Positions 12,472 to 63,905 of a DNA stretch of 64,000 bases are shown piece by piece (positions within the stretch are counted from its first letter, which is position 1; each line of letters starts with the position of its first letter). The DNA lies in assembly GCA_018653365.1 (NCBI GenBank), contig JABIAG010000001.1, positions 260,772-324,771 of the forward strand, given 5' to 3'. This DNA is from Candidatus Woesearchaeota archaeon (GTDB lineage: Archaea; Nanobdellota; Nanobdellia; Woesearchaeales; JABIAG01). The notes below the pieces were generated by a model that saw only the letters and a list, made by a program, of their open reading frames with translations, searched no databases and had not been told where the DNA came from. A program made the position numbers and the translations under genes.

Positions 12472-12515
12472 AGAATAAGAATAAACAATATAAAGGGTTT
12501 GAAATTCTTTATTTC

Positions 12516-13805
12516 ATGGTTAGTGTTAAAGCACTTGCAGTGATGGTATCCTCGCCTTTTATAAGGCTGCATAAAAGTTCTATTCCTCAATCAAGAAGAG
12601 TAACTGAATTATTTATTGATGATGAAGAACGAACATTAGCAAAAGCAAGTATTTGGAGAAGTAATGATCCAATAGTAAATAATATTGCGGTTTTAAGAGT
12701 AAAAGGCACTCATTATGAGATGGGATTTCAACATGGAAGACTTTTAGAAACTGAAGTTAATTCATTTTATAATTCAATGCTAAAGTTAGCAATAGCCTAT
12801 GTTGGAAGAGAGGGGTTGTATGAAGCGTATCATATAATGGAACCATTTATACCTTCTTGCTATAAAGAAGAAATGTTGGGATTGGCACAGGGAGCCAATT
12901 TGCCATTAAGCTCAGTACATTTTGCTCATGTAGTTCCAGCACTAACTGAATATTACCATAGAACACAATTTGCAAGAGGGCTATTTTATAGAAGACCAGA
13001 ACAAAGAGATTTTGTATCACAAACTTGCAGTTTTGTAACTGCCTGGGGCGATGCAACCGTTAATGGAAACATGATTTCACTAAGAAACTTGGATTGGTTA
13101 AGATTTCTAAATGTTCAAAAAACTCCAACAGTAACTGTTTATGAATATGCTGATGGAACTAGTGTAGCAAATTTTGGATTTGCAGGATTTATTGGAAGCA
13201 TAACAGGAATGAATAATCAGGGATTAACTTTTGCAGAAATGGGAGTTACTGACGATCCCAGAGAGACATTAAAAGGAATCCCTTTTATTTTTTTAGCAAG
13301 AGAAATGTTAAGAACAGGTAAAACACTAAATGATGTGGTGAGTATGGCAAGAGAGGCCCCAAGAACTTGTAGTTACGGATACTTACTGGGGTCTGCACAT
13401 GAAAAAAATGCGGTAATGATGATTTCCAACCCTGAAGAGTTTGAAGTTTATAACCCTGGAGAGGATATAAAAGGGTTAAGTTATGGACAATCTGCTTTTT
13501 TCCCAGGAATAAAGAATGTCGTATATGCTGGAATGTTTGATAAACAATTAAATACATCCATTTCTCGAGCTTGGAGTAATATTGATGTCTCCCGAATGCA
13601 ACAGATTGCACATGAATGTGCTACAACTTCTTGTGTACAATCAGCAATAATGTGTCCAGATAAAGACCCCCACGTATTTGGAACAGCATATGTAGCAAAT
13701 GCCAAAGGATTATTTTTAGCAAAAGGGCAAGCAACAAACCGACCATATTTCGGAATAAATTTAGATAAAGTGTTAGCAAATGATGAAAACATTAGAATTA
13801 ACTAA
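12516..13805 (+). CDS. C45-family Ntn hydrolase (acyl-CoA:6-aminopenicillanic-acid acyltransferase-like)
   Basis: Probable nucleophile Cys in QTCSFVTAWG, followed by an NLDW motif. Atypical composition. Confidence 0.5.
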   Translation: MVSVKALAVMVSSPFIRLHKSSIPQSRRVTELFIDDEERTLAKASIWRSNDPIVNNIAVLRVKGTHYEMGFQHGRLLETEVNSFYNSMLKLAIAYVGREGLYEAYHIMEPFIPSCYKEEMLGLAQGANLPLSSVHFAHVVPALTEYYHRTQFARGLFYRRPEQRDFVSQTCSFVTAWGDATVNGNMISLRNLDWLRFLNVQKTPTVTVYEYADGTSVANFGFAGFIGSITGMNNQGLTFAEMGVTDDPRETLKGIPFIFLAREMLRTGKTLNDVVSMAREAPRTCSYGYLLGSAHEKNAVMMISNPEEFEVYNPGEDIKGLSYGQSAFFPGIKNVVYAGMFDKQLNTSISRAWSNIDVSRMQQIAHECATTSCVQSAIMCPDKDPHVFGTAYVANAKGLFLAKGQATNRPYFGINLDKVLANDENIRIN

Positions 13806-15627
13806 AAAAGTCTTCAATTCGTTCTTCAAAATCTTGATGCATTTCAACATCTTCTGAAAAACATTTTTTATAATTAGGCCAGGCATATCTTTTATCTAAA
13901 AAAACTACTAACCCTTTATCTGTTTCACTACGAATGCACCTGCCTGCATTTTGAAACACTTTGCTGATTGCAGGAAGAACATAACCATAATCCCATCCTT
14001 TAGAATACTTACGATCATAATGATCAATTAACGCTTGAGTTTCTAAATCTGGTTTGTTAAGTGGCAAACCAACAATAACTACACACTTAAGCAGATCTCC
14101 GGGAAGATCAATACCCTCACCAAAACTACCTGAAGCAACACCTAATAACACTGCACCATTATCTTTGTAAGATTTGAATCTTTCTAATAGGTCTTCTTTT
14201 TCTTGTTTGGACATCCCACTAACCTCATTAAAAACTGTTTTTTCACACCATTCAGAAAGAAAAGCATAAACTTGATCCCTAATAGAATAACTTGGAAAGA
14301 AAACAACACTATTCCCGGGAACTATATTAGTAATTTTTGCAATATGCGCAGCAATGTTCTTAAACTGATCTAAACTTCTTTCAGAATATTTTGTAGTGGT
14401 CTGAGGAACGATTAAATTAAGTTTATTTTTTTTTGGAAATGGAGAGGGGAGTTCTAGTACCTTGCCCTTAATTCCTAAAACTTCCTGATACATTTTAGCA
14501 GGGGTTAAAGTACCACTCATTAAAATTGAGGAATGACAATTCTCAAAGATTGTTTTAGCATTAACCGAGGGATCTAAACAAGAATGAGTAAGCTCAATTC
14601 TCTCGCCCCTCGGGGTAACAACATGTCGAATTATATTCACAAAGTCCTCTGCATCTTCGTAATGTTCTAAAAATAATGCAATACTTCTCAAATAACTCCG
14701 TTTGGACTTTAAAATGGTTTCATCAGCAAGTTGATCAAATAAATCAATAACATCATTTTTATTATCAATTTTAAATTCACCCTTTCTAATTATTTTTTCT
14801 TCATCCAATCCGATAATGTTCAACAATTTCTCTTGTAACTCATCAAGAATTGGAAAGCAATCATCTGCTTTTAACTCATCTGCCTCTTTTCTAGCACCTT
14901 TAATAGTTAAGGTAGAAACTTTATGCGTCATTAACTCTCTAATTCTATTTGGTAAATTGTGAGCCTCATCAACAATAACAATACACTCATCTAACCCTTT
15001 TTCTGCTTTGTTTAAAAACTTCATCAGAATTGCAGGATTAAACAAATAATAATAATCCGCAATAACAACTTTAGCTTTTTTAGAGAGTAAAAGAGACATT
15101 TCATATGGACAAAGCTTTACCTCTTCACACTTGTCAATAACTTCTTGCACACCTAACGGAGAGGCAATTTCAATACTCTCAAGAGTGCTTTTAGCACTAA
15201 GCGAAAGATTACTCCCCTTTTTAAGATTAGAAAAAAATTCACACTTATCTCCCTCCTTCAGGTTTTTACAATATTCAGAAAACTCATTAGATTGTAATAA
15301 AGTAACTGAGGGTTGCAAACACATCCATTTCTTACCAATAATATCAATTACAGGAATTGAAAGATCATACTTTTCTTTAATTGCATTAAGAGTCTCTAGA
15401 GCAATCTGATGTTGAGTGTGCCTTGAGGTCAAGAAAAAAACAGTTAGTTTGTCTTCTTCAGCTTTTTTTAAAGCAGGCCCTAGTGCAGAAACGGTCTTTC
15501 CTAAACCTGTTGGCGCATGAACAACCAAATTCTCTTTATTTTTTATTGTAGTTGCAATAGTGCTAATGAGCTCATCTTGAATTTTTCGTATTTCTTCAAA
15601 AGGAAAAAGAACATCTTCTTTCTTCAT
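13798..15627 (-). CDS. xpd: ATP-dependent DNA helicase XPD/Rad3 family
   Basis: Walker A HAPTGLGKT, DEAH box VDEAHN, and a 4-Cys FeS-domain pattern (WMCLQP, EYCKNLKEGDKCEF, KLCPYE). Confidence 0.85.
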   Translation of the reverse strand: MKKEDVLFPFEEIRKIQDELISTIATTIKNKENLVVHAPTGLGKTVSALGPALKKAEEDKLTVFFLTSRHTQHQIALETLNAIKEKYDLSIPVIDIIGKKWMCLQPSVTLLQSNEFSEYCKNLKEGDKCEFFSNLKKGSNLSLSAKSTLESIEIASPLGVQEVIDKCEEVKLCPYEMSLLLSKKAKVVIADYYYLFNPAILMKFLNKAEKGLDECIVIVDEAHNLPNRIRELMTHKVSTLTIKGARKEADELKADDCFPILDELQEKLLNIIGLDEEKIIRKGEFKIDNKNDVIDLFDQLADETILKSKRSYLRSIALFLEHYEDAEDFVNIIRHVVTPRGERIELTHSCLDPSVNAKTIFENCHSSILMSGTLTPAKMYQEVLGIKGKVLELPSPFPKKNKLNLIVPQTTTKYSERSLDQFKNIAAHIAKITNIVPGNSVVFFPSYSIRDQVYAFLSEWCEKTVFNEVSGMSKQEKEDLLERFKSYKDNGAVLLGVASGSFGEGIDLPGDLLKCVVIVGLPLNKPDLETQALIDHYDRKYSKGWDYGYVLPAISKVFQNAGRCIRSETDKGLVVFLDKRYAWPNYKKCFSEDVEMHQDFEERIEDFFS

Positions 15628-27525: not shown

Positions 27526-28860
27526 TTATTCTTTAGTTTGTGTTGATTCATTCATAGCAAAATTTGTTGAAAAAAGAATTGCTTGATCTTCAGTAGGGAA
27601 CATTTGAGAACCACTTGTGTATTTTTCATCAAGGATTTCTATGGCTCTTCTATAAAAACCTTTTATGGTATCTGCATTTTCAGCAAGAATCCAGGTGTTA
27701 TTTACTGGATTGATAACTCCTTCTTGTTTCTTTTTCCAAATTTTCCAACGTGAAGGTTTCCTACTTTGAGGTTGCCATTCAGTACTAAGGGCATTAGCTA
27801 ATTTGCTTTTTGCTGCTTGCATGGCTTTAGCACTAGCAAGAACTGGATCGTTAGCTTCTGTTTCTGATATGTAAGCAGTTAGGTCTCCATCATAACCTTG
27901 ATCAAGTCTATCTTTTGCTCTTTGAGCAACTCCCTCTCTTGCACGTCTATGGGAATTTACTCCTCTATCAGAAAGACCTGTAAAACCAAAATAGTTGTCT
28001 GCAGGTTTTTCTTCAATCGCAAGTTCGTAATCAGTTAAAGTTTGAAGATTATTAACGAAAGCATCACCTGTGTTGTTTGCTAAAGCATCAAGTGCAGGTT
28101 CAGCACTCATATCATGATCTTGAAGTGCAGTAACTATGTTATCTCTTAACCCTTGGATTGCGGTTTGAAGTCGTCTAGCTCCCCCCTCTCCTAAACTTCC
28201 AATATGAAGTTCATTTAAAGGACAAATATAACGATCATCTTCTTTTCTCCAGGTAGTATAATCTGTTGGAATAATTGGTTGAGGAACTTTTGCATCAGGA
28301 TCAATACTTACTGCGGGCATAAATCTTTCTATTAGTGTTGGATCTTGTTGAGTGTATCTTCCAAGCTCATCAAGTAAGTGAGCAGCTTGAGGAAAAGCAG
28401 CATTAGGTGAAGATGTAACGTTTTCTAACCAATCATGTAAGTCAGAAAGATGCCAGGGCTGACGAGCTTGCATTCTTGCATTACCACAAAGAGTTGCATA
28501 ATCTTGAGCTCTTCGTTCAGCACCAGTTCTAGAAAAACCACCAAATTGAGCTTCATCATCATCATCACAAAAAGGATCATTAAACATACCATTATCATAA
28601 GTAGTCCAGTTAGCAACATCAGAAGCATTTACAAGGCCAGTAATTGCATCTTCAATCAAATCAGCTCTTGCAATACGATCTGTTGCTTCATATTCTTGTC
28701 TAACAATTGCTTCTTTAGAATCTTGTCCATGAAAAATTTCTTTTATTAAATCAACGGTGTGAGGAATTGCTGTTGTTAGACCCATACCTATTGCAAGTGC
28801 AACGGCTCTTTTACGAACTCTTGGGTTTTCTGTTGGAGATCCTCTTGGTTCTGGTGTCAT
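27526..28860 (-). CDS. hypothetical protein (Lys-poor, Ala/Asp/Gln-rich)
   Basis: 444-aa ORF with no motif I recognise. Co-directional with, and 43 nt downstream of, the radical SAM gene. Confidence 0.5.
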   Translation of the reverse strand: MTPEPRGSPTENPRVRKRAVALAIGMGLTTAIPHTVDLIKEIFHGQDSKEAIVRQEYEATDRIARADLIEDAITGLVNASDVANWTTYDNGMFNDPFCDDDDEAQFGGFSRTGAERRAQDYATLCGNARMQARQPWHLSDLHDWLENVTSSPNAAFPQAAHLLDELGRYTQQDPTLIERFMPAVSIDPDAKVPQPIIPTDYTTWRKEDDRYICPLNELHIGSLGEGGARRLQTAIQGLRDNIVTALQDHDMSAEPALDALANNTGDAFVNNLQTLTDYELAIEEKPADNYFGFTGLSDRGVNSHRRAREGVAQRAKDRLDQGYDGDLTAYISETEANDPVLASAKAMQAAKSKLANALSTEWQPQSRKPSRWKIWKKKQEGVINPVNNTWILAENADTIKGFYRRAIEILDEKYTSGSQMFPTEDQAILFSTNFAMNESTQTKE

Positions 28861-28903
28861 TGACTGGTGGTAAAATAAATGAGCTTATAAAGGTTTTGGG
28901 TAG

Positions 28904-30244
28904 TTATGCTTGGGTGTTTTGAGGTGGGTTGTATGTTGCTAATTCTTCATTAAACTCAACATAACGTGGGTGCCAGTTCTCCGGCCACATTTGTTTAGCA
29001 ATTTGTTCACTAAGTAAACATAATGTTGAACGAACACTTCCTGCACGCTTTTGTTTTTCTAACAAAGCAAGATAATTCTGGTAATCTGGAAATTGAGTCA
29101 TTCTTTCTCTAATTGCATGAATGTTGTTTGCATAACCAATTCCCTCTATGCCTTCTTCAGAAACAAAATAACGATTAAGGGATGCTCTTATCTCTTGACT
29201 TTCGGGATCATCAAATTCAGTGTTATAAGGCACAACGTTTCCTATTGAATTAGTGTTGGGATAAACTTGAGAAATAGACATTCGCCTTTCCAAATTAGGA
29301 TCTAATCTAAACACTCGGTCTAGAGCTTCAACAATTGTATAGAGCCAGGGAATTCCAGTATGTTCTCCTTGTGCTAAACCGGCTCTTTCAAGAAGTGGGT
29401 CTGCTCTTAAGTGTTCATGCAAATATCCTTGTAAGGTGTATTGTTTTCTGTTTAAAGGTAAGACTGTAAAGTTAGTTCCTAACGGACTAAACCAAGTAAT
29501 CGTATCAACAAATTGCTGAATGGATTGTTCTTCTGTTAAACCGGGCATGCCAATAATTACATCTGGAGATGCTTTAACATCATATCTACGCATTAGCTCA
29601 ACAGATTTAACAATTTGTTCTCTAGTCAAATCTTTGTTTAACCAATGATTCAAAACAAATTCATCTGAAGTTTCTGCTCCAAATTCAAGAGTAAATTTGG
29701 TATCACCAAAACACCTTCTTAAAAGTCGAAGTCGATCTTCTGTAACATCTGTTGCTCTTACCTCAAATACATAACCTAATTTTGGGGGTTTAGATAATAT
29801 TGGAGTTTCAAATAATTCTAAAAATGTTTCTTCTGGAGTTTCTGTTGGACAAAACATATTGTAATTTGAAATTAATTCTTTTGGTCTCAGTGGATCTGGT
29901 TGTTCGCCTCTTGCGTTTGTAAAACTTCTTTTCATCACTTTTCCATACAAGTCAACATCTCTTTCTCTTAAAACCATCATTGCCGCTGCACCTGCTGTGA
30001 ATTCAGAATGATAGTCACATATACTACACCCTGCAAATTCACCTTCATTATTTCTGTGAACACAACCCAGAGAAGGTAAAAGACTTAGACTGCCGTGCTC
30101 ATATTGATATCCGCCCATGAGACAGGTTTCAGTTGCTTCTGCAACTAACTCTTCAGTGGAAAGTGCAGTTAATCTATCCTGATTTTGTTTGGAATTTGCT
30201 GAAACTGGTTCCCATATTTTTTTAATTACATCTTCTATAAACAT
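28904..30244 (-). CDS. radical SAM protein, YhcC/TIGR01212-like (Elp3-related) with CX11CX2C cluster motif
   Basis: GCVHRNNEGEFAGCSIC has the spacing C-x11-C-x2-C. DVIIGMPGLTEEQ matches the radical-SAM hhGhPGET motif. C-terminal ~130 aa has no recognisable domain. Confidence 0.55.
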   Translation of the reverse strand: MFIEDVIKKIWEPVSANSKQNQDRLTALSTEELVAEATETCLMGGYQYEHGSLSLLPSLGCVHRNNEGEFAGCSICDYHSEFTAGAAAMMVLRERDVDLYGKVMKRSFTNARGEQPDPLRPKELISNYNMFCPTETPEETFLELFETPILSKPPKLGYVFEVRATDVTEDRLRLLRRCFGDTKFTLEFGAETSDEFVLNHWLNKDLTREQIVKSVELMRRYDVKASPDVIIGMPGLTEEQSIQQFVDTITWFSPLGTNFTVLPLNRKQYTLQGYLHEHLRADPLLERAGLAQGEHTGIPWLYTIVEALDRVFRLDPNLERRMSISQVYPNTNSIGNVVPYNTEFDDPESQEIRASLNRYFVSEEGIEGIGYANNIHAIRERMTQFPDYQNYLALLEKQKRAGSVRSTLCLLSEQIAKQMWPENWHPRYVEFNEELATYNPPQNTQA

Positions 30245-34556: not shown

Positions 34557-35168
34557 TTATTCTTGTAAAAATTCAATTAAACCACGATGACGTATGGCAC
34601 TAACCATTGCACGATAATGATCTTCAAAAGTATCCAGGTTTATTTCTGCTCTACTTAAAAGTCTTTTTCCATAAGTGTTTTTAGGACAAAACTCGACCTT
34701 TTCTCCTGCTGGACGAAATTTACGACATTCTGCCCCAGTAATTTCAGCAATTCTTGCTCTAAACTTACTTTTCTCATTTTCTAAATCCTGGGTTGCGAAT
34801 TGGTCTATTGTGCTAAAACCCATTTTTGTGACTATATTTATTACACTATACGCAGAATGTACAAGTTGAAGTAATCTTAAATCTTCTTTGTCAAACTCAT
34901 ATCCGTCCTGTTGAAGTTGTCTATAAGATTTTAAACATTCTAGTATAAACGTTCTGTCACTCCAACCGAGTATTTGAGTTTGCACTCTTTGTTCCCATAA
35001 GTCTGCATTTAGAGTTGCAACAATTTTCGGAAGGGTCTGAGGTCCTGAAGTAACCGCATGAACGATTAAACCTGTCTTATTCCTATTTATCAAATCTGCA
35101 TGTTGTACACAAGAAGGTGCGTCTGTTAACAACTTTCTTGTCCTGGTCGCTACCTCATAAACGTTCAT
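34557..35168 (-). CDS. hypothetical protein (Lys-poor)
   Basis: 203-aa ORF divergent from the CARF-HEPN gene. Confidence 0.4.
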   Translation of the reverse strand: MNVYEVATRTRKLLTDAPSCVQHADLINRNKTGLIVHAVTSGPQTLPKIVATLNADLWEQRVQTQILGWSDRTFILECLKSYRQLQQDGYEFDKEDLRLLQLVHSAYSVINIVTKMGFSTIDQFATQDLENEKSKFRARIAEITGAECRKFRPAGEKVEFCPKNTYGKRLLSRAEINLDTFEDHYRAMVSAIRHRGLIEFLQE

Positions 35169-35181
35169 AACCTAAAGAAGG

Positions 35182-36534
35182 TTGTCTAATCTTAAAAAGA
35201 TTCTGGCATTTACCAAAGATTTAAAAAAGAGGTTAAATTGCTTTAATTCTTATATGGCAAGTGGATTAATTCTAGCACCTGGTTTAGACGAGTTTATGGC
35301 AGAATTTACTGTAAAAGAGATCAAGGCAGATCATGTAGCTTTCATGGCAACAGAAGCCACAGTAGAATTAATTCATCATGTTGTGGAAAAATTAGAGATA
35401 AAATCATATAAAACATTCTTTGTAAAAAACATAATCAGTACATCTGAAGCAATAGAAGAATTCATCAACGCATTTCAATGGCTAAAAGAAAAAGAGTGTA
35501 CTAAAATAACAGTAGACGCAACAAATTGTATAACTGTAATGGAAATGGCAACCTATGTTGCAGCAAGTTTAATGGACCTGTTTGAAAAAGGAGAAACTGA
35601 ACACGAAGTGAACTTAGTGTATGTACATTCAGATTTTGAAATTAAAAAAGATGGAGTTGCGGGAGAGGTAAGGGGAACAGAACGATTAATTGAACTAGAA
35701 AAGCCATTAGATAGTTTAGGAATTATCTTGGCACACGACGCAATACATGCATTTAATAGTAACCGATACGTACAAGCTGCAGAAAACTTTAAAGTATTGG
35801 GAGAGAATTCCACTTCTGATAAATCATTATTTTACCGAGGGTTGAAACACCTGTCTCAGGCATACAATTTTTGGGATAAAATGAACTTTAATGATGCACT
35901 ACTTGCTTTGAAAAAAGCAGAAGATGAACTTAATAGAGTGTGGTACACAAGAAACAAAAGTGCTTTTTCCCATGTGAAAGAAAACATTAAGGTTCTAGAA
36001 GAACTAAAAAACCATAATGAACTTGCAGTAATAATTGACCTGTACATGAACGCAGTAAGACGACAAAAATCAGAAAGGTATGATGACGCTCTCGCAAGAC
36101 TTTATGCGTGTGTTGAAAGAATTTCACAACACCAATTAAAAGAACATGGAATTGTTACAAAAAATCCAGATTATTCTAACTTACCTAAAGAGGTTAAGGA
36201 TAGATTTGAAAAAGAGATCGGACTACCTAAAGAATTAGAACTGAAAAAAGGACTGTATCTATTATCTTTGCTAAATGATCCAATAGGAAAAGAAGTACTA
36301 GGTCTGCGTTACAAGTCAATAGTCGGAATTATTGGATTACGTAATACCTCAATACTAGCACATGGAATAAAACCCATCGGTGAGAAAAACTTTCTTGATT
36401 TCAAAGAAAAATTATCAGATAAACTATACAATGCATTCTTATTACATTATAAAATGGGAGCAGGATTTATTGATGGCCATAAACACATAAAACTCTCAAA
36501 TGTACGTGATTTGATGTATAAAGAAAGATTTTAA
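35182..36534 (+). CDS. CARF-HEPN protein, Csx1/Csm6-like (orphan, no cas context in window)
   Basis: N-terminal Rossmann-like CARF pattern (LILAPGLDEF ... KITVDATNCITVMEMA). Central YMNAVRRQKSERYDDALARLYACVE helix is typical of Csx1/Csm6 HEPN. C-terminal RNTSILAHG contains the R-x4-6-H motif. Confidence 0.5.
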   Translation: MSNLKKILAFTKDLKKRLNCFNSYMASGLILAPGLDEFMAEFTVKEIKADHVAFMATEATVELIHHVVEKLEIKSYKTFFVKNIISTSEAIEEFINAFQWLKEKECTKITVDATNCITVMEMATYVAASLMDLFEKGETEHEVNLVYVHSDFEIKKDGVAGEVRGTERLIELEKPLDSLGIILAHDAIHAFNSNRYVQAAENFKVLGENSTSDKSLFYRGLKHLSQAYNFWDKMNFNDALLALKKAEDELNRVWYTRNKSAFSHVKENIKVLEELKNHNELAVIIDLYMNAVRRQKSERYDDALARLYACVERISQHQLKEHGIVTKNPDYSNLPKEVKDRFEKEIGLPKELELKKGLYLLSLLNDPIGKEVLGLRYKSIVGIIGLRNTSILAHGIKPIGEKNFLDFKEKLSDKLYNAFLLHYKMGAGFIDGHKHIKLSNVRDLMYKERF

Positions 36535-36588
36535 TTCTCGTGCTTAAATATGGCTAATCTTTTTAAATAAAGTGATATTAGCTGATGC

Positions 36589-38136
36589 ATGCCTGATTTT
36601 AGATCTACAAAAGAATTCGAAAGACTCTGTTTTGATGCAGAAGCATTTTTACAAGCTCAATCTGCAGGTTCAACAAAATATCTTTTGGTAATAAACCAAG
36701 AAAGACTTCTGACTGCATTAGGACCTGCGTTTACACTGAAGTGGGCACTAGAACCCGAAGAAATAGTAGAAGAGAAAAAACCAAAAAAAGAAGGCGACGA
36801 ACCGGAAATAAAAATCGACCGTCCAAGAGAACGAGCTAAAAGAAGAATAGATACTTTACAAGGAGAAATCAGACGGCAGTTAAGAGCTAATGCTGGATTA
36901 ACTATTGAACAAATAGGGCAAAACCACAGATATGGGCTAGTAGATCTGTTAAGTATACCGGTTTTAGATGAAGCTGCTGTAAGTGGAACTTTACTGGAAG
37001 GTCAAACGTGTTTGAAAATACTCAGAATAGTAAAACCTGGAAAATTAAAAGATTATAAAAAAAGATTTTCAAGATTCGACTTTAAACCATACTTACATCA
37101 AACCGAAACATTGACTGGCCTGGACTTAGAAAATATCTGTGCACATACTGAAGAAAGAAGAATAGAAAACCCTGCTTTGGTCGGGTTAAAAGATATTTTC
37201 ATAGAAAGTTATGAAGGAAGCAATATTGCAGGAGCATTAAATTTTCTTAGAGAACGAGCAACTGCACAATCTTTGAGCATATTAAGACAATCTGCAGAAG
37301 AAGTTTTTAGAACAAACAGTCAGATGATACAAGGAGACAAATTTGAAGAAGTGGAAGGAAGAAATTATGTGGAACTTTTGAGAGAATTAGGACATATTTC
37401 TTCATCAGATTATGCACAAGCAAAAGCAATGATGTTTGCCGGACATAAAGCAGTACATGGAGAACACACCGCATTCCATTCCCTCAACGCATTACTCTTT
37501 TATTCCTGGATTACTGATTATGTAGATAGAACTGTAGGAATGCACAGACTAACTAAATCAAAAGTAAATGGGACCTCTCTAAACATGCCTTACAATCAAG
37601 AATTAGATGAAGAAAGACACGGATTTACAAGAGCAATCTTTGATCAGTTTCAAGCAATGAGGGCAACAGAACCTGCAGGCAAGTATGAGGGAGGGCTTTT
37701 AGCGGGAGATAGAACAGTTAGCAAAGTGGATGCAATGACAAATGCAATGCAATTATTAGAATATGTTAAGCCATTAATTGACGATCTTTGTATGTCTGAC
37801 CAAAAGTTTTGTGAAGTTATGAGTTTTTGGAGAGGAAGACACGAGAAGAAAAAGTATGCAGAATATTCAAGTGAAGATGCACTGAGAGCAAACCTATTTG
37901 TTTTTGGAATATGCTATAAAGCACACAGACAAGAACCCTCAAGATTAGAATTAAAAGTTCCAGGGGATAGGGGAGATAATAATCTTTTCGTAGCAATAAG
38001 AAGAAAAGCAGCAGGACCAACGTTCTACAGTGAAGTGTTTAGAGACTTAGAACCTGCTTTGAATTCACAATTAACTATGGCAAAAGAAATAGCAGAAGCT
38101 TATCTGGCAACGCTTGTTGGAATTGAGTTGAAATAA
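36589..38136 (+). CDS. hypothetical protein (Arg-rich, Lys-poor)
   Basis: 515-aa ORF with no recognised motif, ending 36 nt from the tRNA-Gln 3' end. Confidence 0.5.
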   Translation: MPDFRSTKEFERLCFDAEAFLQAQSAGSTKYLLVINQERLLTALGPAFTLKWALEPEEIVEEKKPKKEGDEPEIKIDRPRERAKRRIDTLQGEIRRQLRANAGLTIEQIGQNHRYGLVDLLSIPVLDEAAVSGTLLEGQTCLKILRIVKPGKLKDYKKRFSRFDFKPYLHQTETLTGLDLENICAHTEERRIENPALVGLKDIFIESYEGSNIAGALNFLRERATAQSLSILRQSAEEVFRTNSQMIQGDKFEEVEGRNYVELLRELGHISSSDYAQAKAMMFAGHKAVHGEHTAFHSLNALLFYSWITDYVDRTVGMHRLTKSKVNGTSLNMPYNQELDEERHGFTRAIFDQFQAMRATEPAGKYEGGLLAGDRTVSKVDAMTNAMQLLEYVKPLIDDLCMSDQKFCEVMSFWRGRHEKKKYAEYSSEDALRANLFVFGICYKAHRQEPSRLELKVPGDRGDNNLFVAIRRKAAGPTFYSEVFRDLEPALNSQLTMAKEIAEAYLATLVGIELK

Positions 38137-38369: not shown

Positions 38370-39137
38370 ATGAAATGGGTAATTCTTACGTTGATGTTAT
38401 TGTTATTGGTAGCGTGTAGTTCAGACATACCCAATAATGAAACTGTAAATGAAACTGTTGTTGAGGAAGTTCCTGAGACTCCTGAAGAAATGTACAAAAC
38501 AAATGGTGACTTCATACCCAAAGTAAATTCTGAAACAGCTTATCCTGAATTAAATCAAACAATGAAAATAAGAACTGCAGTACAAAATTATGGGGTTAGT
38601 GTAATTAATAATACTATGAGTTATACTTTGAAAATGACTCGATTAGAAGAAATAGTCTATGAAAAATCTGAAAGCGTGAATATTAATCTTCTAGCAACAG
38701 AAGAACTAGAACTGCATGAATTTGAATACACTTTTGACAGATACGGCGAATTTGATATTGAATTAATAGTAGATGAAAAAAACACAACTCATGAATTAAA
38801 AGAAGATAATAATGTTGAAGTGTTTACTGTTTATGTGAGGGCAGTAGTAGATGAACCTGATTCTGATGATGACGATGATGAAGATGAACCTCCCGAAACG
38901 GGATTGGATAATGATGACGCAAAAGATGAAGTATCAGCAAATGGTTGTTACGATTCAGATGGTGGAAAAGAATATGGTACAACTGGAATCTGTTATGATG
39001 ATGTTAGTTTTGAAAATGGACGAGCTGATTTTTGTGCTGGGGATGAAAGATTGGCAGAAGGTTTTTGTGAAGCCAAAGCATGTAATTTTGAGGTAAAAAC
39101 GTGTAGTGGTGTGTGTCGCGATGGTAAATGCGTTTAA
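38370..39137 (+). CDS. secreted lipoprotein with poly-acidic segment and Cys-rich C-terminal domain
   Basis: Signal peptide with lipobox LLVAC. Acidic run DEPDSDDDDDEDEPPE. 8 Cys in the last 70 aa. Confidence 0.5.
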   Translation: MKWVILTLMLLLLVACSSDIPNNETVNETVVEEVPETPEEMYKTNGDFIPKVNSETAYPELNQTMKIRTAVQNYGVSVINNTMSYTLKMTRLEEIVYEKSESVNINLLATEELELHEFEYTFDRYGEFDIELIVDEKNTTHELKEDNNVEVFTVYVRAVVDEPDSDDDDDEDEPPETGLDNDDAKDEVSANGCYDSDGGKEYGTTGICYDDVSFENGRADFCAGDERLAEGFCEAKACNFEVKTCSGVCRDGKCV

Positions 39138-39988
39138 TTAAGTAAAGTTTCTAAATCTGTTAAAACTTCTAAAGGAAATGATTGTCCCTTACAATTACAC
39201 CAATCTGGAACTCGAAGATCATTGATTGCTAACGTAGTTTGTCCATCTTTGAAAACATATGCCTCAACAACAGGAACAAGAACATAAGGTTTCTCAGTAG
39301 CAGGATCATAAGTTGGTTTGCCACGTCTTTCATTTCGTCTTTCAAGTCTAATCATGTAATTTGTATTACCAACACTACCCCTAAAAACACGGATATTTCT
39401 AAGCAATAAATTATCCATTAGACCCCATGAATGCCTTGCACTTCCTGCAAGTTTAAGAGCAGCCGAATAAATTCGTTCTCCAGTTTCATCTGATTCCAGA
39501 CCAGTTATTGCAGCATTAAGTCCAGGAGGTAAATCAATTCGATGACTTTGCCTTTTTGGGTTTGAAATTAGTTGTCCAACAAGATCTACCTCATCACAAC
39601 GAGGGTTAAATCGAGTAAAACAAAAATCTAAATTAAAATATGAATTTGTACTAGTTGGATGAACAACCCTCCAACACTCTTCAACGGAAACGTTACTCGT
39701 TCCCATCTGAACCATTGTTGGACCAGCACCCACCCTTCCTAAATCCAATTTTTTTTTATAAGAAAAAGGCGTTATACTTAAAGAACCTGAAGTTCCAGAG
39801 TGATGATGCCACTCAAACCCTGCGGGATTGCCGTTTCTACGATAATCAACACTAGCAACATATAATTTTTCGTTAAAAATACCTGCTTTAATCTTCTCAT
39901 GCCAAAACTCACCTTTAAAATCTATTCCAGTTTCTGCAGCAGCTTTAACTCCCTCATATAATTGACAAACAAATTGAGCATTATTCAT
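39134..39988 (-). CDS. hypothetical protein (Lys-poor)
   Basis: 284-aa ORF with atypical composition. Confidence 0.4.
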   Translation of the reverse strand: MNNAQFVCQLYEGVKAAAETGIDFKGEFWHEKIKAGIFNEKLYVASVDYRRNGNPAGFEWHHHSGTSGSLSITPFSYKKKLDLGRVGAGPTMVQMGTSNVSVEECWRVVHPTSTNSYFNLDFCFTRFNPRCDEVDLVGQLISNPKRQSHRIDLPPGLNAAITGLESDETGERIYSAALKLAGSARHSWGLMDNLLLRNIRVFRGSVGNTNYMIRLERRNERRGKPTYDPATEKPYVLVPVVEAYVFKDGQTTLAINDLRVPDWCNCKGQSFPLEVLTDLETLLN

Positions 39989-40063
39989 TAATATGGAGAA
40001 TAAGAATGTTTTTTTAACGCTTTTGGTTAATCTTTTTAAATCAAATTAAACTCGTTAATTAAT

Positions 40064-40513
40064 ATGCAAAGAACATATTTTAGAGCAATGTCTACTAGAG
40101 AATATCAGATTTGGGAAGGACAAGAACGTGTAGATTCTGGACTGGATTGGACAGAGTTAACAATCGCAAGATTTGGAGGGTATCCCTTAAGTACATTAAA
40201 AGAATCCATAGACTCTGGATTACCTGGCTGGGGACCACATGATGTGATGATTAAGTTAGTGAGTTCTGAGCCAGGGGAGTTTATGTTAAAAACAATGGAA
40301 GAACAACTTGGGGAGGGAGCTGGTTTTGATCTCATGGTACCCTACAGATACATGAATTTTGCTCCACTATCATTTAGTAAAGTACATGTTGTTTACGATC
40401 CTCGTGCAGAAGTTTCACCAAAACCAGTTGATGAATTAGAACAGTTTAGAGAAAAAGGGTTATGGGAATGCATGTCTGAGTGTTTGAAAGAAATGTTTGG
40501 AAAGTCTCATTGA
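40064..40513 (+). CDS. hypothetical protein (Lys-poor)
   Basis: 149-aa ORF with atypical composition. Confidence 0.4.
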   Translation: MQRTYFRAMSTREYQIWEGQERVDSGLDWTELTIARFGGYPLSTLKESIDSGLPGWGPHDVMIKLVSSEPGEFMLKTMEEQLGEGAGFDLMVPYRYMNFAPLSFSKVHVVYDPRAEVSPKPVDELEQFREKGLWECMSECLKEMFGKSH

Positions 40514-41229: not shown

Positions 41230-41377
41230 ATGTTTGGGAGGGAGTTGTCTATATATAAATCTTAGTAAATTAAGTGAGGTTGGAGAGGATTTAGTATAAA
41301 AACCGTAGCATTTAAAAAGGAAACAATGGTTCTTAAGATAAATGACAAAAAATATTGTCATAATGAGGAAAAATAAA

Positions 41378-41752
41378 ATGAAAGGAACAGTAAAATTTTT
41401 TGATGGAACCAGAGGATTTGGTTTTATCGCAGGAGAGGATGGCAAAGAGTACTTTGTACACCAAACTGCACTAGGAGAAGGAGTAACATTAAATGAAAAT
41501 GAGGCAGTAACCTTCGAAGTTGAAGAAGGAGATAGAGGTCCTAAAGCAGTTAATGTCGCAAGAGGTGGAGAAGATTCTGCACCTGCTGAAGAAGCAAGTG
41601 AAGATGTTGCAGAAGATGCAGCTGAAGAACCTGCTGAAGAAGCAAGTGAAGAAGTTGCAGAAGATGCAGCTGAAGAACCTGCTGAAGAAGAAGCTGAAGA
41701 AGAAGCACCTGCTGAAGAAGCAAGTGAAGACGAAGCTGAAGACGCAGAATAA
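41378..41752 (+). CDS. cold-shock domain protein (bacterial CspA-like) with acidic tandem-repeat C-terminal tail
   Basis: MKGTVKFFDGTRGFGFI (RNP1-like KGFGFI) and VHQTAL. Start at 41378 follows a GAGGA SD. The tail contains 16-aa AEEASEDVAEDAAEEP repeats. Confidence 0.75.
   Translation: MKGTVKFFDGTRGFGFIAGEDGKEYFVHQTALGEGVTLNENEAVTFEVEEGDRGPKAVNVARGGEDSAPAEEASEDVAEDAAEEPAEEASEEVAEDAAEEPAEEEAEEEAPAEEASEDEAEDAE
41582..41677 (+). repeat. 2 x 48-bp near-perfect in-frame tandem repeat (degenerate third copy to 41752)
   Basis: cctgctgaagaagcaagtgaagatgttgcagaagatgcagctgaagaa occurs twice in a row with one substitution. Confidence 0.7.
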
Positions 41753-41841: not shown

Positions 41842-42402
41842 ATGATTAAGCAAATTCTGTTAACTAGACAACATTGTGAACAGTTAGCTCATGTAAATAA
41901 TGAGGATATTGAATTTAATGGTTTTGGTCTTTTGGTTAGAACTTCAGAAGATATTGCGGTTGTTTCGGAATTAGAGCTTGTTCTGGGTGAAGAAAATAGT
42001 TCAGTTGGTTGGAACCTGCCTACTTTTATGTCGCTTTGGCAAAAGAATCCTGAAAAGTACTCTTTGATAATGGTTCATACGCACTCAAGAAGGTATGGAG
42101 ATGTGATAAGAAAATTTGATCCTTATTGGTCTGTAAGTAGAAGAAATAGTGGACATAAACAAGGAACGGTTTTGGAAAACAGGTTTTATATTTCAAAACA
42201 CCTTGATTCTGGAGATAATGTAACAATGAAATATGGATATGAGAATGGCTTGTTTGAGACTGCTTTGCTTGTTCACCCTGTTGTTGGTTCTGAGGGAGAA
42301 GTAATGACTCCAGCGCATGTTAGAATAACAGCTTATGCTTATGATCCTGCAAGTCTTGGAAATGTTAAGGGTTTAGATCTTGTTATGCTGGCTGAGACGT
42401 AA
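41842..42402 (+). CDS. hypothetical protein
   Basis: 186-aa ORF. Its HTHSRRYGD segment is not a full JAMM motif. Confidence 0.4.
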   Translation: MIKQILLTRQHCEQLAHVNNEDIEFNGFGLLVRTSEDIAVVSELELVLGEENSSVGWNLPTFMSLWQKNPEKYSLIMVHTHSRRYGDVIRKFDPYWSVSRRNSGHKQGTVLENRFYISKHLDSGDNVTMKYGYENGLFETALLVHPVVGSEGEVMTPAHVRITAYAYDPASLGNVKGLDLVMLAET

Positions 42403-42674
42403 CTTTTTGTTAACAAACCAATCTTAGTATGGAAAAAAGTATATTCTAGAGTATATAAATATTTAAATAGTTTAATCTCAAATAAAATAGAATAAATATG
42501 AGTTTTTGGCGAAACTCGGTGTTAACTTTTTGGTTTGAACTTTTTTGTATGATCACTTATTGGCGTAAGTAACCATTCGTTCTAATAGTAGGTGTTGAAA
42601 AACAACCATATAAATGTTTCGATACTGTAACATATAGATTGCAGTACATAAATAAAACAAGGGGGCTAGAAAAA

Positions 42675-43745
42675 ATGGATTTTATCGTACAAAACGCATT
42701 AAAACAACAAGACGAAATGACTACGCCAGAGGTTGAGGTAGGTCAAGCAAGTATTAAAGTTATAGGAGTGGGTGGAGCAGGCGGAAATATGGTTAACTGG
42801 CTTTACAAAAAAGGAGTTAAAGGCGCAGAAATTATAGCATGTAACACAGACCAACAACACTTAAACATAACTGAAGCAGATAGAAAATTTCTGATTGGAA
42901 AAGACCTAACAAAAGGACTAGGATGCGGCGGATGGCCAGAAAGAGGAGCAGAAGCAGCACAAGAATCCATATCTCAAGTGAAAGATATTCTAAAAGAATC
43001 TGATATGGTATTTGTATGTGGCGGAATGGGTGGAGGAACCGGAACAGGAGCTTGCCCAGTAGTTGCACAAGTATCAAGAGACGCAGGCGCAATAGTAATT
43101 GGAACAGTAACCATGCCTTTCAATATTGAAAGAACAAGAGTTGATAAAGCCGAATTTGGTCTAAAACAACTAAGAAAAGTTTGTGACACAGTAATTGTTA
43201 TAGACAATAATAGACTGGTACAAATAGCAGGTAACCTACCAATTCAACAAGCATTTGCAGTAGCAAACGAATTAATCGCAACAATGATTAAAGGAATTGT
43301 AGAAACTATCGCAGTACCATCTTTAGTAAACCTAGACTATGCTGACGTAAAAACTATCATGACAAATGGTGGTGTAGCAGCAATTGGTGTTGGAAGTTCA
43401 GATACTAACAACAGAGTAGAAGAAGCAGTAAACGGAGCACTAAGTAATCCATTATTGGACATAAATTACGAAGGAGCAACCGGAGCTTTAATACAAATTG
43501 TTGGTGGTTCAGATATGACCCTTGATGAGGTCAACAAAATTGGAGAAATCGTAACCGAAAACCTAGACTCAGACGCAAACGTAATCTGGGGAGCTAGAAT
43601 CACAGAAGAAATGAAAGGAAAACTAACTGTGATGACAATAATAACCGGTGTAAGATCTCCATGGATTGTTGGAAGAGCCGAATCAGGAGAAGCAGAAACA
43701 ACTGCTTTGATGAATGACGAACTAGGGATAGAAATAGTGAAGTAA
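42675..43745 (+). CDS. ftsZ: cell division GTPase FtsZ
   Basis: GVGGAGGN and GGGTGTG tubulin signature motifs. Start at MDFIV follows a GGGGG SD-like motif. Confidence 0.9.
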   Translation: MDFIVQNALKQQDEMTTPEVEVGQASIKVIGVGGAGGNMVNWLYKKGVKGAEIIACNTDQQHLNITEADRKFLIGKDLTKGLGCGGWPERGAEAAQESISQVKDILKESDMVFVCGGMGGGTGTGACPVVAQVSRDAGAIVIGTVTMPFNIERTRVDKAEFGLKQLRKVCDTVIVIDNNRLVQIAGNLPIQQAFAVANELIATMIKGIVETIAVPSLVNLDYADVKTIMTNGGVAAIGVGSSDTNNRVEEAVNGALSNPLLDINYEGATGALIQIVGGSDMTLDEVNKIGEIVTENLDSDANVIWGARITEEMKGKLTVMTIITGVRSPWIVGRAESGEAETTALMNDELGIEIVK

Positions 43746-43754
43746 GATTCATTC

Positions 43755-43820
43755 TTGCCTTCACTTTTTTAATTCACCCCCCAAATGCTATTAGACTGGT
43801 GAAGGCAGTTTTTTTCTTTT
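43755..43820 (+). terminator. hairpin plus T-tract downstream of ftsZ
   Basis: tgccttcac ... gtgaaggca 9-bp inverted repeat followed by TTTTTTT. Confidence 0.35.
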
Positions 43821-43871
43821 TTTTCTTTTAATACCAAATTCTTTTTAAATAAATCTTAATTCCATATCTTT

Positions 43872-44474
43872 ATGCCAGAAATAGTGAGACTAACAAGACA
43901 AAGAGAAGAATTAGCATTAGATGTAACCGCATTCTATAGGACAGAATTATCAAAATTGAAAAACGTCTATTTTACACCTGAAAGAGTAAGAGAAATGTTG
44001 GCAAAAAGAAATTTAACTTATTTTCAAGAACTAGCAAGACAAGGAAATTTAAAAGTAACACCCAAACAACCTGTAACTAGAGTACAGCTTGCTTTGGATG
44101 GAGAACAATTAGTCGGAGTAAGAGAAACAACCGATTACGCAATGGAACAGGGGGGAGAGGTTGTGGGTTTAACAAGAGCACTAATTTGGTTATTGGCAGA
44201 ACCCAAAGGACGAGGAACAGGCACATTATTACTTAATGATATGATTGAAAATTCAGAAGGTGTTGATGCACTAGCACTTAATGTTGCACAAACAAATAAA
44301 GGGGCTAGAAAACTTTATCGAGGTAGGGGTTTTGAATACTGTTGTGTCCAACCAGGACATGAAAACCAATTAGTACCTAATCAATTATGGGTAAAACCTT
44401 TAACTCAGTTGGGTTATAAAACACTTAGGGTGGAAAGAAAAAGAGCACTAGCAGAAAAATCCAGTTCTAAATGA
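43872..44474 (+). CDS. GNAT-family N-acetyltransferase (Lys-poor)
   Basis: LAEPKGRGTGTLLL (Q/RxxGxG/A acetyl-CoA motif) and the ARKLYRGRGF motif. Confidence 0.5.
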   Translation: MPEIVRLTRQREELALDVTAFYRTELSKLKNVYFTPERVREMLAKRNLTYFQELARQGNLKVTPKQPVTRVQLALDGEQLVGVRETTDYAMEQGGEVVGLTRALIWLLAEPKGRGTGTLLLNDMIENSEGVDALALNVAQTNKGARKLYRGRGFEYCCVQPGHENQLVPNQLWVKPLTQLGYKTLRVERKRALAEKSSSK

Positions 44475-44526
44475 TTCGGGTGTAATTTAAGTAATCTTCT
44501 TAAACAAAGTTTAGTTCTTAAGAGCT

Positions 44527-45177
44527 ATGAAAGCAGTGTTAATGTTATATCCAATAAGACAAATTGTAGAAAGAGATCCAGAATTTCCAAGCTTAAGATG
44601 CGAACTGGTGGATGGCTTGAAACGTTACTGGACTCAAAGTTTAAATGGGGTTGTAACTCCTGAAGAATTTGATCAAGATTTTGGGTTAATTAATCGAAGA
44701 TTAGCTAACTACAGAAAACAAGGATTTAATGTGGGATGGATATTTTTCGGTCAAGAAGGTAATCTTGGCAAGCCCGATACATCAACACAAGCTTCACTAT
44801 TTGACATCAGAACAGAAGATGTAAAGCTTTCTGCAGGTTTTACTTATGCAAATTATCGAACAGGAGTGTTCTATTGCGATGCAGAATCAGTACTATCAAC
44901 TTTGCCAAGTTTGGATGATGTTGTAATTGGGGGATTTCATAATAGTGATTGTGTTCCAAAACTTGCAGGTTTATTGAAACAAGCAGGAGTTAAAGCACAA
45001 ACCGATCCAAGATTAACCGATGAAATATTTCTTTATTCTCACAGAATTTTAGAACAAAGACTCGCAAGATATCAAATAGACCATGGTTTTTTAGATTCAG
45101 AAATGAACGAAGATAATCCAGAAGAAATGCGAACTCTTTTTGAAAGAGAAGCCGTAGAAGAAAAACTTTTAATCTAA
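44527..45177 (+). CDS. hypothetical protein (Lys-poor)
   Basis: 216-aa ORF with atypical composition. Confidence 0.4.
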   Translation: MKAVLMLYPIRQIVERDPEFPSLRCELVDGLKRYWTQSLNGVVTPEEFDQDFGLINRRLANYRKQGFNVGWIFFGQEGNLGKPDTSTQASLFDIRTEDVKLSAGFTYANYRTGVFYCDAESVLSTLPSLDDVVIGGFHNSDCVPKLAGLLKQAGVKAQTDPRLTDEIFLYSHRILEQRLARYQIDHGFLDSEMNEDNPEEMRTLFEREAVEEKLLI

Positions 45178-45839
45178 TCTTTTTTATTTACTTTTTCATT
45201 AATACGATCTTTTAAAGCAACACTACCTTTCTTAACTTTTCTTAAAAGTTTATCAACCTGTTTCTTAGCCATACCAGACCATTGATAGAATGCTTCATCA
45301 AAGTCTTCAACTCTGCCACCATACTGTTCAAAGTAACACATTGATTCAAGAGACTCTAACAATTTAGTATCATGAACCTCATCAGAAAAGCCAATAGGAA
45401 TAATCGCTTGAGGTCGAGTATGATCTGGAATTTTAAGAAGACGCTTAATCATCCCCTCTTCAAAAGCACTAACAAAAGTTGCAGACAGACCTAAATCTGT
45501 AGCTCGTAATAATAAGTTTTCAACAGCTAATGCACAATTTTGAACTGAATATAACATTTCTCCCCTAACTCCATAATGACGTTTAACATCTTCCATAAGA
45601 GCAACAACAACAATAATTAACGGAGCAGAAGAGATCCAATTCTGTTGAAAACAAGCATCAGCAACCTGGTTTTTACTATCTTGATTCTTAACTAAAATAA
45701 ACTTCCAGGACTGTAAATTACCTGAAGATGGTGCTTTTCGAGCAGCATCCAATAAATCCATAACCTCATCCGCAGAAATTTCTTTGTCTTTGAATTTTCG
45801 CACACTTCTTCTTTTGTTAATTGCATCCTCAACATTCAT
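45174..45839 (-). CDS. nitroreductase-family protein
   Basis: KRRSVRKF...APSSGNLQSWKFILV motif. Confidence 0.75.
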   Translation of the reverse strand: MNVEDAINKRRSVRKFKDKEISADEVMDLLDAARKAPSSGNLQSWKFILVKNQDSKNQVADACFQQNWISSAPLIIVVVALMEDVKRHYGVRGEMLYSVQNCALAVENLLLRATDLGLSATFVSAFEEGMIKRLLKIPDHTRPQAIIPIGFSDEVHDTKLLESLESMCYFEQYGGRVEDFDEAFYQWSGMAKKQVDKLLRKVKKGSVALKDRINEKVNKKD

Positions 45840-45875
45840 ACTTATTTTTAGTAGAAGGAGTTAATAAATGTTACG

Positions 45876-46556
45876 TTATAAAGCAGTAGTAATAAGGTCT
45901 TCAATAAAGGGTTGATCTGAAAAATAAGTATGCTCTCGAAATGTAACTACTGGAAATTGGCATTCTTCGTTTAAAGTTCCCCCAAGCCTATCTGCTCTAG
46001 CATGAACTAAAACATCTAAGTAAACATCACCAACAGCTTCTTGAAATTTTCTAAACACAACTGCGGGATGGTTTGCCGTACTCAACCCAGTGTAAAGTCT
46101 TAAAGGTCTCATATGATTAGAAATTACTTGAGTCATATAATCAACTTCGGGTTTTTCAAGACCTAATTCATTTAAAATTTCTAGTGCTGCTTTAGCACCA
46201 ACTTCTGCATGGTTAGGACAAGAAGTAACCCCTCCAAATTTAGTTTGCATAACTGGACGGCCACTCTCAGTTACACAAGCTTTACCAATATCATGTAACA
46301 AAGCACAAGCACCCAATAAATCTCTTTTAGTATAATGGCCAACATTGTGAAAAAAATAAGTTCTTAATCTTGCTCGTACTTCAGGAACTTGAATAAAACC
46401 AAAGTTCAAAGAATCATCCAATGCAGCTTTCACGGCTTTAGTGTGATCTAAAACTGTAGGTTCGGTATGATACTGATTTACATCACGAACATTTGCCAAT
46501 GCCTGGACCTGGGGCTTGATTTCAATTATGCCCATTAAATTCCAAATTGGGATCAT
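45876..46556 (-). CDS. HD-domain metal-dependent phosphohydrolase
   Basis: ALLHDIGK HD motif with downstream His residues. Confidence 0.65.
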   Translation of the reverse strand: MIPIWNLMGIIEIKPQVQALANVRDVNQYHTEPTVLDHTKAVKAALDDSLNFGFIQVPEVRARLRTYFFHNVGHYTKRDLLGACALLHDIGKACVTESGRPVMQTKFGGVTSCPNHAEVGAKAALEILNELGLEKPEVDYMTQVISNHMRPLRLYTGLSTANHPAVVFRKFQEAVGDVYLDVLVHARADRLGGTLNEECQFPVVTFREHTYFSDQPFIEDLITTAL

Positions 46557-63353: not shown

Positions 63354-63370
63354 TTATTTCTTAAGAATAA
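63353..63370. repeat. 18-bp direct repeat copy 1 (ATTATTTCTTAAGAATAA)
   Basis: Exact copy of 63888..63905. Contains the palindrome TTCTTAAGAA. Confidence 0.4.
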
Positions 63371-63408
63371 CAGAAAACAATTTAAATCAAGTTTTATTGA
63401 TAAACTGA

Positions 63409-63888: not shown

Positions 63889-63905
63889 TTATTTCTTAAG
63901 AATAA
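63888..63905. repeat. 18-bp direct repeat copy 2 (ATTATTTCTTAAGAATAA)
   Basis: Exact copy of 63353..63370. On the minus strand it encodes the last codons (...ILKK*) of the partial gene at the window end. Confidence 0.4.

Follow-up and report, generated by a model that had tools for sequence, protein, structure and literature searches.

A Csm6-family CARF-HEPN protein and its co-inherited partner of a new family at a cas-free locus of DPANN archaea

What triggers a CARF effector that has no Cas10 beside it is an open question, and the numerous orphan genes of this kind have mostly been dismissed as displaced accessories. The question is posed here by a Csm6-like gene (35254..36534, plus strand) in a stretch of 64,000 nucleotides (the window) from contig JABIAG010000001.1 of a Candidatus Woesearchaeota archaeon. 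The sole constant companion of this predicted RNase gene encodes a new protein (hereafter the partner; 36589..38136, plus strand, 515 residues) with a second, HEPN-like domain predicted from its structure model and with no cyclase. The two genes form a compact, conserved cassette in small (~1 Mb) DPANN genomes and offer a concrete, tractable case. We propose, giving the proposal about an even chance, that they constitute a CRISPR-independent RNase module of DPANN archaea, in which a Csm6-family CARF-6H-HEPN protein is coupled to a co-inherited partner with a HEPN-like domain.

Identity and conserved residues of the Csm6-like protein

Judged by its profile matches, architecture and catalytic motif, the open reading frame (ORF) at 35182..36534 (plus strand) is a bona fide CARF-6H-HEPN protein of the TIGR02710/Csm6 family. 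A preceding sequence-only reading had called it a CARF-HEPN (Csx1/Csm6-like) effector and quoted three strings, KITVDATNCITVMEMA, YMNAVRRQKSERYDDALARLYACVE and RNTSILAHG, all of which are contained in the translation; the assignment was borne out by profile matches far beyond chance and by intact HEPN catalytic residues. For the NCBIfam full-length equivalog TIGR02710 ('CRISPR-associated CARF protein'), the score is 146.3 bits (E 1.1e-42), where the curated cutoff is 83.9, and the match spans residues 42-411 of the ORF and model positions 5-377 of 384. In Pfam, the Csm6 HEPN family PF09670 is matched at E 3.6e-27, and the middle 6H/helix-turn-helix (HTH) domain is present (PF22205 Csm6_6H, E 3.1e-10, 40.5 bits, cutoff 27.6), whereas Csx1_CARF reaches 14 bits and stays under its cutoff of 24.7. 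The PADLOC Csx1 model matches at 1.4e-55 and the CARF_HEPN model likewise at about 1e-55. The identical public protein, MBT3304633.1 (Candidatus Woesearchaeota archaeon), is labelled 'TIGR02710 family CRISPR-associated protein' by NCBI. All homologues begin at the equivalent of ATG 35254 (MxKGLIxAPGLD), and the public copy carries a gene call of 426 residues; the true coding sequence is therefore 35254..36534, and the 450 residues previously read from TTG 35182 were 24 codons too many. Profile matches and alignment to Thermus thermophilus Csm6 (TtCsm6; 5FSH/8JBB) place the CARF domain at about residues 1-150, the 6H/HTH domain at about 161-241 and the HEPN domain at about 253-388.

The nearest solved structures are those of TtCsm6 (TTHB152; 5FSH, 8JBB and 8JBC), with E values of 7e-5 for the single sequence and 5e-10 for a clade profile. 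Both proteins have the CARF-6H/HTH-HEPN architecture, match TIGR02710 over their full length and share an alignable R-N-x-S/A-x-L-x-H-G motif. In contrast, their identity is only about 25%, with a sequence alignment that does not reach beyond the 6H and HEPN regions, and the Csm6-like gene does not lie beside a type III-A locus. Closer relatives form a tight clade of approximately 15 homologues (42-52% identity) labelled Woesearchaeota, Aenigmarchaeota and Nanoarchaeota, and 60 columns are invariant over 14 of its members (41-52% identity), all HEPN catalytic residues among them. The catalytic motif RNTSILAHG (R363-x6-H370; 36340..36366, plus strand), correctly recognised in the sequence-only reading as of the R-x4-6-H type, aligns to R415...H422 of TtCsm6 (RNSALLVHG); its R, S, A, H and G are invariant in the family and its N nearly so. 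The first HEPN helix, YMNAVRRQKSERYDDALARLYACVERISQ (36043..36129, plus strand), contributes N266, R269, D278, R282, Y284, E288 and Q292, which are invariant in 17 diverse TIGR02710 members together with R363, S366, A369, H370 and G371. Invariance of the R-x6-H motif and of the first-helix residues indicates an active enzyme under purifying selection rather than a relic and argues for the Csm6-like protein being, by prediction, an active RNase.

The CARF domain departs from the canonical pattern at two motifs. At motif II (VDATNCITVMEMATY, 35512..35556, plus strand), every member of the clade has T90, N91, I93, T94, V95, E97 and M98. The earlier placement of 'DATNCIT' at the D-x-T-G-G-T-K position is confirmed by an alignment with TIGR02710 proteins at large: the region corresponds to D-x-T-S/G-G-T-K of other members but has Thr94 in place of the Lys and Cys92 in place of the Gly. 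Motif I reads A-P-G-L-D where canonical members have 'VGTG', and contains no Ser or Thr. Thus, the canonical motif I (G-T-S) and motif II (T-x-G-x-K) are represented by A-P-G-L-D and T90-N-C92-I-T94, in contrast to G58-T59-S60 and T133-G135-K137 of TtCsm6 (PMC10897365). Besides these motifs, the residues described for TtCsm6 comprise Y161, N164 and the mobile-loop residue E179, of which Y161 and E179 contact cyclic tetra-adenylate (cA4); cleavage of cA4 is abolished by K137A and likewise by the T59A/S60A double mutation (PMC10897365). Equivalents of the two contact residues are kept in the woesearchaeal protein. In the CARF strand and mobile-loop region (LVYVHS ... GEVRGTERL; 35614..35688, plus strand), the invariant Y123 and E143 align to Y161 and E179, respectively, in a pairwise HMMER alignment. 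The CARF region as a whole is among the best-conserved parts of the clade, with K58, S62, E65, T90, N91, T94, E97, Y123, E138 and E143 invariant. These residue patterns suggest a functional ligand pocket that is probably unable to degrade its own ligand, since the ring-nuclease residues (Ser/Thr of motif I, Lys of motif II) have been lost. The ligand may be other than a canonical cyclic oligoadenylate (cOA), and the specificity of the pocket may have shifted.

Genomic setting and the partner protein

The earlier statement that the window holds neither cas genes nor a CRISPR array agrees with a repeat scan and with a PADLOC scan of all 76 window ORFs. No CRISPR-like repeat family occurs in the 64 kb, where the tandem repeats are coding low-complexity stretches only. 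The best 25 of 41 PADLOC families comprise Csx1/CARF_HEPN on the target itself, a DinG-type helicase and weaker generic defence-library matches. A type III locus just outside the window, which the sequence-only reading had named as fatal to its view, was not found in the 7.9 kb beyond the right end, a cas-free segment encoding threonyl-tRNA synthetase, S-adenosylmethionine (SAM) synthetase, SRP54 and a PIN-domain protein. Ten related loci likewise contain no CRISPR array and no strong match to a core Cas model, so that no linkage to a type III CRISPR-cas locus (Cas10) is seen within the 64 kb plus 7.9 kb or at these loci. In all, these searches cover about 72 kb here and related neighbourhoods amounting to some 11 independent ones, some of them 20-30 kb long.

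What does accompany the Csm6-like gene is the partner gene, separated from it by an A/T-rich spacer of 54 nt (TTTTTAAATAAA, 36535..36588, plus strand). A partner homologue lies directly downstream on the same strand, at a distance of 30-61 nt, in window/L006, L001, L003 (=L004, L017), L005, L010, L011/L016 and L013 (L numbers denote the related loci). A cut-off ORF downstream of the Csm6-like gene in L009 matches the partner weakly (E 0.007-0.02). One further locus, L018, was reached not via Csm6 but from a divergent partner (P0040, ~25% identity), which stands head-to-head with a Csm6-like gene of ~28% identity (RDMSIIAHG). This arrangement and the low identities show that the adjacency of the two genes survives rearrangement and deep divergence. 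Their pairwise identities co-vary (r 0.88 over six loci, 0.68 with L018), which shows co-inheritance and is no proof of interaction, because the locus pairs are not phylogenetically independent. In L001, L005 and L018, the flanking genes for replication factor C (RFC) and superoxide dismutase (SOD) are 49-80% identical, whereas the pair is only 26-35% identical. Divergence so much faster than that of its neighbours is typical of conflict genes. The partner family is also rare and patchy: searched exhaustively with HMMER, 1.84 billion cluster representatives yielded only 19 relatives, all of about 470-560 residues, and word-indexed homology searches with the single sequence and with a four-sequence profile returned the identical protein only.

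The partner (MBT3304632.1, labelled 'hypothetical protein' by NCBI) has no sequence match in Pfam, NCBIfam, PADLOC or the PDB. It consists of an alpha/beta region without a fold match (residues 1-211), a HEPN-like domain (about 212-360) and a helical region (361-515). In the structure model, the central domain appears to adopt the four-helix up-and-down arrangement of HEPN proteins, and an R/K-x4-H motif with an invariant His follows its third helix, as placed from secondary structure. This motif, DRTVGMHRLTKS (R/K314-x4-H319; 37525..37560, plus strand), with G317, H319 and K323 invariant in an alignment of 17 sequences, is a candidate HEPN-type active or binding site. The same alignment contains 12 invariant residues (P124, D179, L229, R233, Q277, H290, G317, H319, K323, D352, D430 and R433) and the conserved blocks 'GNAAVH' and 'D-R/K-T-x-G-x-H-R-L-x-K-S'. 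The HEPN-like domain is the sole recognisable one; it is predicted to fold like HEPN at least, and fits no described HEPN family. Compared with minimal HEPN proteins and toxins (AF0298/UPF0332, TT1696, ST0689, HepT), the partner is four times larger, lacks profile similarity, an invariant Arg and an MNT antitoxin, and has N- and C-terminal regions without a structural match. As far as the libraries and literature searched show, the family is undescribed; orphan CARF effectors themselves were already known.

The sequence-only reading had also suggested a non-CRISPR signalling module whose signal generator might be one of the two neighbouring genes, 34557..35168 or 36589..38136. The module idea gains support from the downstream gene, which is conserved and co-varies with the Csm6-like gene, and none from the upstream one, which recurs only in L012. 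No support was obtained for a signal generator of the usual kind. No cyclase or nucleotidyltransferase domain was recognised in either neighbour, and in the partner no signature of Palm/GGDEF, CD-NTase/SMODS, diadenylate cyclase (DAC), MNT/Pol-beta or another nucleotidyltransferase was detected with Pfam, NCBIfam, PADLOC or a fold search. Cyclase genes are absent from the neighbourhoods examined as well, with one exception, a DAC gene in L018.

Proposed mechanism and competing explanations

Based on these conserved features, we propose the following hypothetical scheme for the two-gene module. The Csm6-like protein would act as a dimeric ligand-gated RNase, in which an adenylate-type oligonucleotide binds the composite CARF pocket; binding would realign R363 and H370 in the HEPN domain and lead to non-specific cleavage of single-stranded RNA, resulting in growth arrest or defence. 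With a CARF domain devoid of the ring-nuclease residues (motif-I Ser/Thr, motif-II Lys), the activator would probably not be degraded by the enzyme itself. The partner would play the regulatory part that belongs to Cas10 and ring nucleases in type III systems and would control when the RNase is on. In the version that we favour, its HEPN-like domain binds or cleaves RNA and would in this way provide linear oligo(A) ends that bear a 2',3'-cyclic phosphate, or take them away.

An extended form of this scheme, which we consider improbable as it stands, is a CARF cascade without a cyclase: upon invasion or stress, the partner would cleave cellular or foreign RNA to short oligo(A) carrying a 2',3'-cyclic phosphate, which would bind the CARF domain of the Csm6-like protein, itself without ring-nuclease function, and turn on the HEPN domain. 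Precedents exist for the chemistry. The HEPN RNase Cas13 generates tetra-adenylate with a 2',3'-cyclic phosphate (A4>P) in vitro, which activates TtCsm6 (PMC8010768), and SisCsx1 is activated by RNAs with tetra-adenylate tails (PMC5737841). In the engineered Cas13-Csm6 tandem (FIND-IT / SHERLOCKv2), this HEPN RNase product switches on a TIGR02710-type Csm6 without a cyclase (PMC8010768); the tandem is artificial and depends on a guide RNA, and the same logic is proposed for the natural pair, with the partner as the putative source of such ligands. If the cascade existed, a HEPN-to-CARF-HEPN amplification loop would replace Cas10 as a natural counterpart of the Cas13-Csm6 tandem, and such a cyclase-free loop could be an evolutionary precursor or an offshoot of type III signalling.

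Several observations weigh against an autonomous module with a HEPN-like partner. The HEPN assignment of the partner comes only from fold similarity in the model and a short motif, and position 314 of that motif is Arg in 11, Lys in five and Ile in one of the 17 sequences, which speaks against a canonical HEPN catalytic site common to all members. No Pfam family, HEPN models included, is matched at E<=1 by any of the 17 members; hhalign comparisons of the partner with the Csm6 clade/HEPN and with HepT, as well as at the domain level, were not significant, and a Foldseek search of the PDB with the whole partner model returned nothing significant. The linkage has exceptions too: downstream of the Csm6-like gene, L002 carries an unrelated gene of 723 codons, L007/L008 an unrelated gene of 176 codons and L015 only small ORFs, while no Csm6-like gene is seen beside the partner gene of L019, a contig of 2.5 kb. 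None of the related loci lies on a viral contig, and most of them are set in ordinary chromosomal surroundings and not in defence islands. With its altered motifs, the CARF domain could respond to another ligand or could even have lost its gating by a ligand. Finally, the ~72 kb inspected belong to a genome of at least 1.1 Mb, the remainder of which may hold a type III locus that acts in trans; genomic data have led to the proposal that effectors encoded at other loci are used in trans (PMC11229360).

The last point leads to the alternative that survives best, which we nevertheless regard as unlikely: the Csm6-like gene is a displaced accessory of a type III system encoded elsewhere in the genome, or the relic of a lost one, with Cas10 supplying cOA in trans and the partner acting as an accessory or regulator. 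It is consistent with the definition of the TIGR02710/Csm6 family as CRISPR-associated, in addition to the limited share of the genome inspected and the proposed activation in trans. However, neither a cas gene nor an array was found in the ~11 independent neighbourhoods, the constant neighbour is the partner and not a cas gene, and the motif-II Gly/Lys and motif-I Ser/Thr that serve TtCsm6 in binding and cleaving cA4 are lost. Orphan CARF genes are moreover common (PMC4012209, PMC12669027), and genes unlinked to CRISPR occur in every CARF family (PMC4012209). The woesearchaeal gene resembles such orphan CARF-HEPN (Csx1/Csm6) genes in being an effector unlinked to CRISPR-cas and differs from them in having a specific, conserved and co-varying partner of a new family. 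Should a type III system turn out to be encoded at another site in these genomes, no more would be left of the finding than a new accessory protein associated with Csm6. If instead the pair works alone, CARF-gated RNases would be wired to an input other than Cas10; the pair would stand for a new family of proteins and probably for a new principle of regulation, and a defence or stress module would be added for archaea with a poorly known immune repertoire.

We give still less credence to a toxin-antitoxin-like pair, in which the Csm6-like RNase would be the toxin, the partner an inhibitor binding, for instance, at the HEPN dimer interface, and the CARF domain only a modulator. Tight linkage, short spacing and co-variation of the two genes fit such an arrangement, as does the faster evolution of the partner (28-41% identity, compared with 49-66% for the RNase), and toxin-antitoxin genes occur near some of the loci (MNT/HepT in L001, PIN/RHH in L002). 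In contrast, the size of the partner (~500 residues) and its 12 invariant polar or charged residues are more suggestive of an enzyme or of a site for a specific ligand than of a simple inhibitor. The lack of an MNT-type nucleotidyltransferase domain in either neighbour places the locus outside the MNT-HEPN type II toxin-antitoxin systems, and three members of the clade have no partner.

Less probable again is a housekeeping or stress pair for RNA turnover, the CARF domain of which would sense endogenous cyclic di-AMP (c-di-AMP), diadenosine tetraphosphate (Ap4A) or RNA ends with a 2',3'-cyclic phosphate. The chromosomal and partly syntenic context beside RFC and SOD in L001, L005 and L018 would suit this role, as would the absence of mobile-element hallmarks from the window and of matches on viral contigs. 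In L018, a gene with DAC and DisA-linker domains (L018:10165-11259) directly follows the partner in the head-to-head cassette, and c-di-AMP, as a cyclic di-adenylate, could hint at a ligand. A DAC as the general signal source was rejected, however, as the gene stands beside the pair in L018 only and is absent from the window and the other loci. A housekeeping role is also difficult to reconcile with the patchy, rare distribution (19 partner representatives among 1.84 billion), with a divergence far faster than that of the flanking housekeeping genes, and with the integrase or toxin-antitoxin genes near some loci. The weakest explanation, a decaying pseudo-effector left after CRISPR loss beside an unrelated neighbour, would account for the lost canonical CARF motif-I and motif-II residues and is already disfavoured to the point of being barely credible, given intact reading frames, the 60 invariant columns with all HEPN catalytic residues included, and a partner that is conserved and co-varies.

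Other features of the window and of related neighbourhoods

The Csm6-like gene is preceded by an intergenic region of 85 nt between divergent genes (35169..35253, plus strand), which contains the spurious TTG-35182 extension. It also harbours an A/T-rich TATA-like box, AAGATTTAAAAAAGAGG (~35217-35233, plus strand), about 25 nt ahead of ATG 35254, which we take from the sequence to be a putative promoter element. The divergent gene on the other side (34557..35168, minus strand) encodes 203 residues of unassigned function, with no family and no PDB relative. It was rejected as a part of the module: the only locus that has kept it is that of the nearest relative, L012, with 36% identity compared with 79% for the Csm6-like protein, and the other loci lack it.

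The window has a GC content of about 33%, and its genes include those for EF-2, EF-1alpha, ribosomal protein S10, diphthine synthase, FtsZ and seryl-tRNA synthetase, which identifies it as part of a small archaeal chromosome; Rfam and tRNA scans of the 64 kb gave no matches. About 15 of its ORFs are poor in Lys and richer in Arg (Lys 3-6% compared with 10-15% in their neighbours; GC 0.35-0.40 compared with 0.27-0.34). They are located at 11431-13805, 27526-30244, 34557-35168, 36589-38136, 39134-40513, 41842-46556 (several), 51150-51761 and 62592-63888, interspersed among Lys-rich genes, and most have no Pfam match. The composition was rejected as a mark of foreign genes: FtsZ, a radical-SAM protein, a GNAT protein, an HD protein and a peptidase-C45-like protein belong to this group, which is therefore not simply foreign DNA. 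At 41342-41752, a cold-shock-domain-like protein has a long acidic, Ala/Glu-rich tail encoded by tandem repeats of 12/24/48 nt (41581-41746), the sole sizeable tandem repeat in the window, which is coding and not CRISPR-like. The PADLOC match to 'typeIV_DinG' (CAS-IV-A associated, 1.8e-116) probably stems from the ORF at 13798..15627 (609 residues), most likely a housekeeping XPD/Rad3 helicase judging by its sequence, which contains HAPT, so that a false 'cas' flag is possible in automated annotation. Across the right end, L020:6174-8003 (overlapping window positions ~63889-64000, minus strand) encodes a PIN-domain protein of 609 residues with faint nSTAND3 and KH signals, which may be a further RNase or NTPase gene of the defence type.

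In the related neighbourhoods, small proteins of 81 and 125 residues (L001:2821-3066 and L003:3587-3964; 64% identical, with a weak Pfam match to EF-Tu domain 2) directly follow the partner. They could represent a third, facultative member of the cassette, one that the window does not have. Two genes downstream of the pair, L003 carries a tyrosine integrase gene and, beyond it, very large ORFs of 1148 and 624 residues without Pfam matches (L003:4076-11274), and the cassette may sit at the edge of an integrated element there. On the bacterial-looking contig of L002 (L002:1-17127), a clade member (P0013, 44% identical) lies beside DnaK/DnaJ/GrpE, RecO and PASTA-domain genes, with the PIN/RHH toxin-antitoxin pair upstream of the Csm6-like gene and the gene for the 723-residue protein, which has no Pfam match, downstream. 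This context points to a transfer of the Csm6-like gene between domains, accompanied by a change of partner. The partner-less Csm6-like gene of L015, on a contig of 112 kb, is immediately preceded by six tandem paralogous genes for small lipoprotein-like proteins (MNxxYxTLKVVGALALAGCG...; L015:6057-8732). Two ORFs in related neighbourhoods match prokaryotic viperin (pVip) models at E ~1e-24; a candidate is L005:5631-6698, although the identity of the ORF is uncertain. A radical-SAM gene lies three genes downstream of the pair in L005, and the MNT/HepT pair of L001 lies two genes downstream. These features may be weak defence-island signals.

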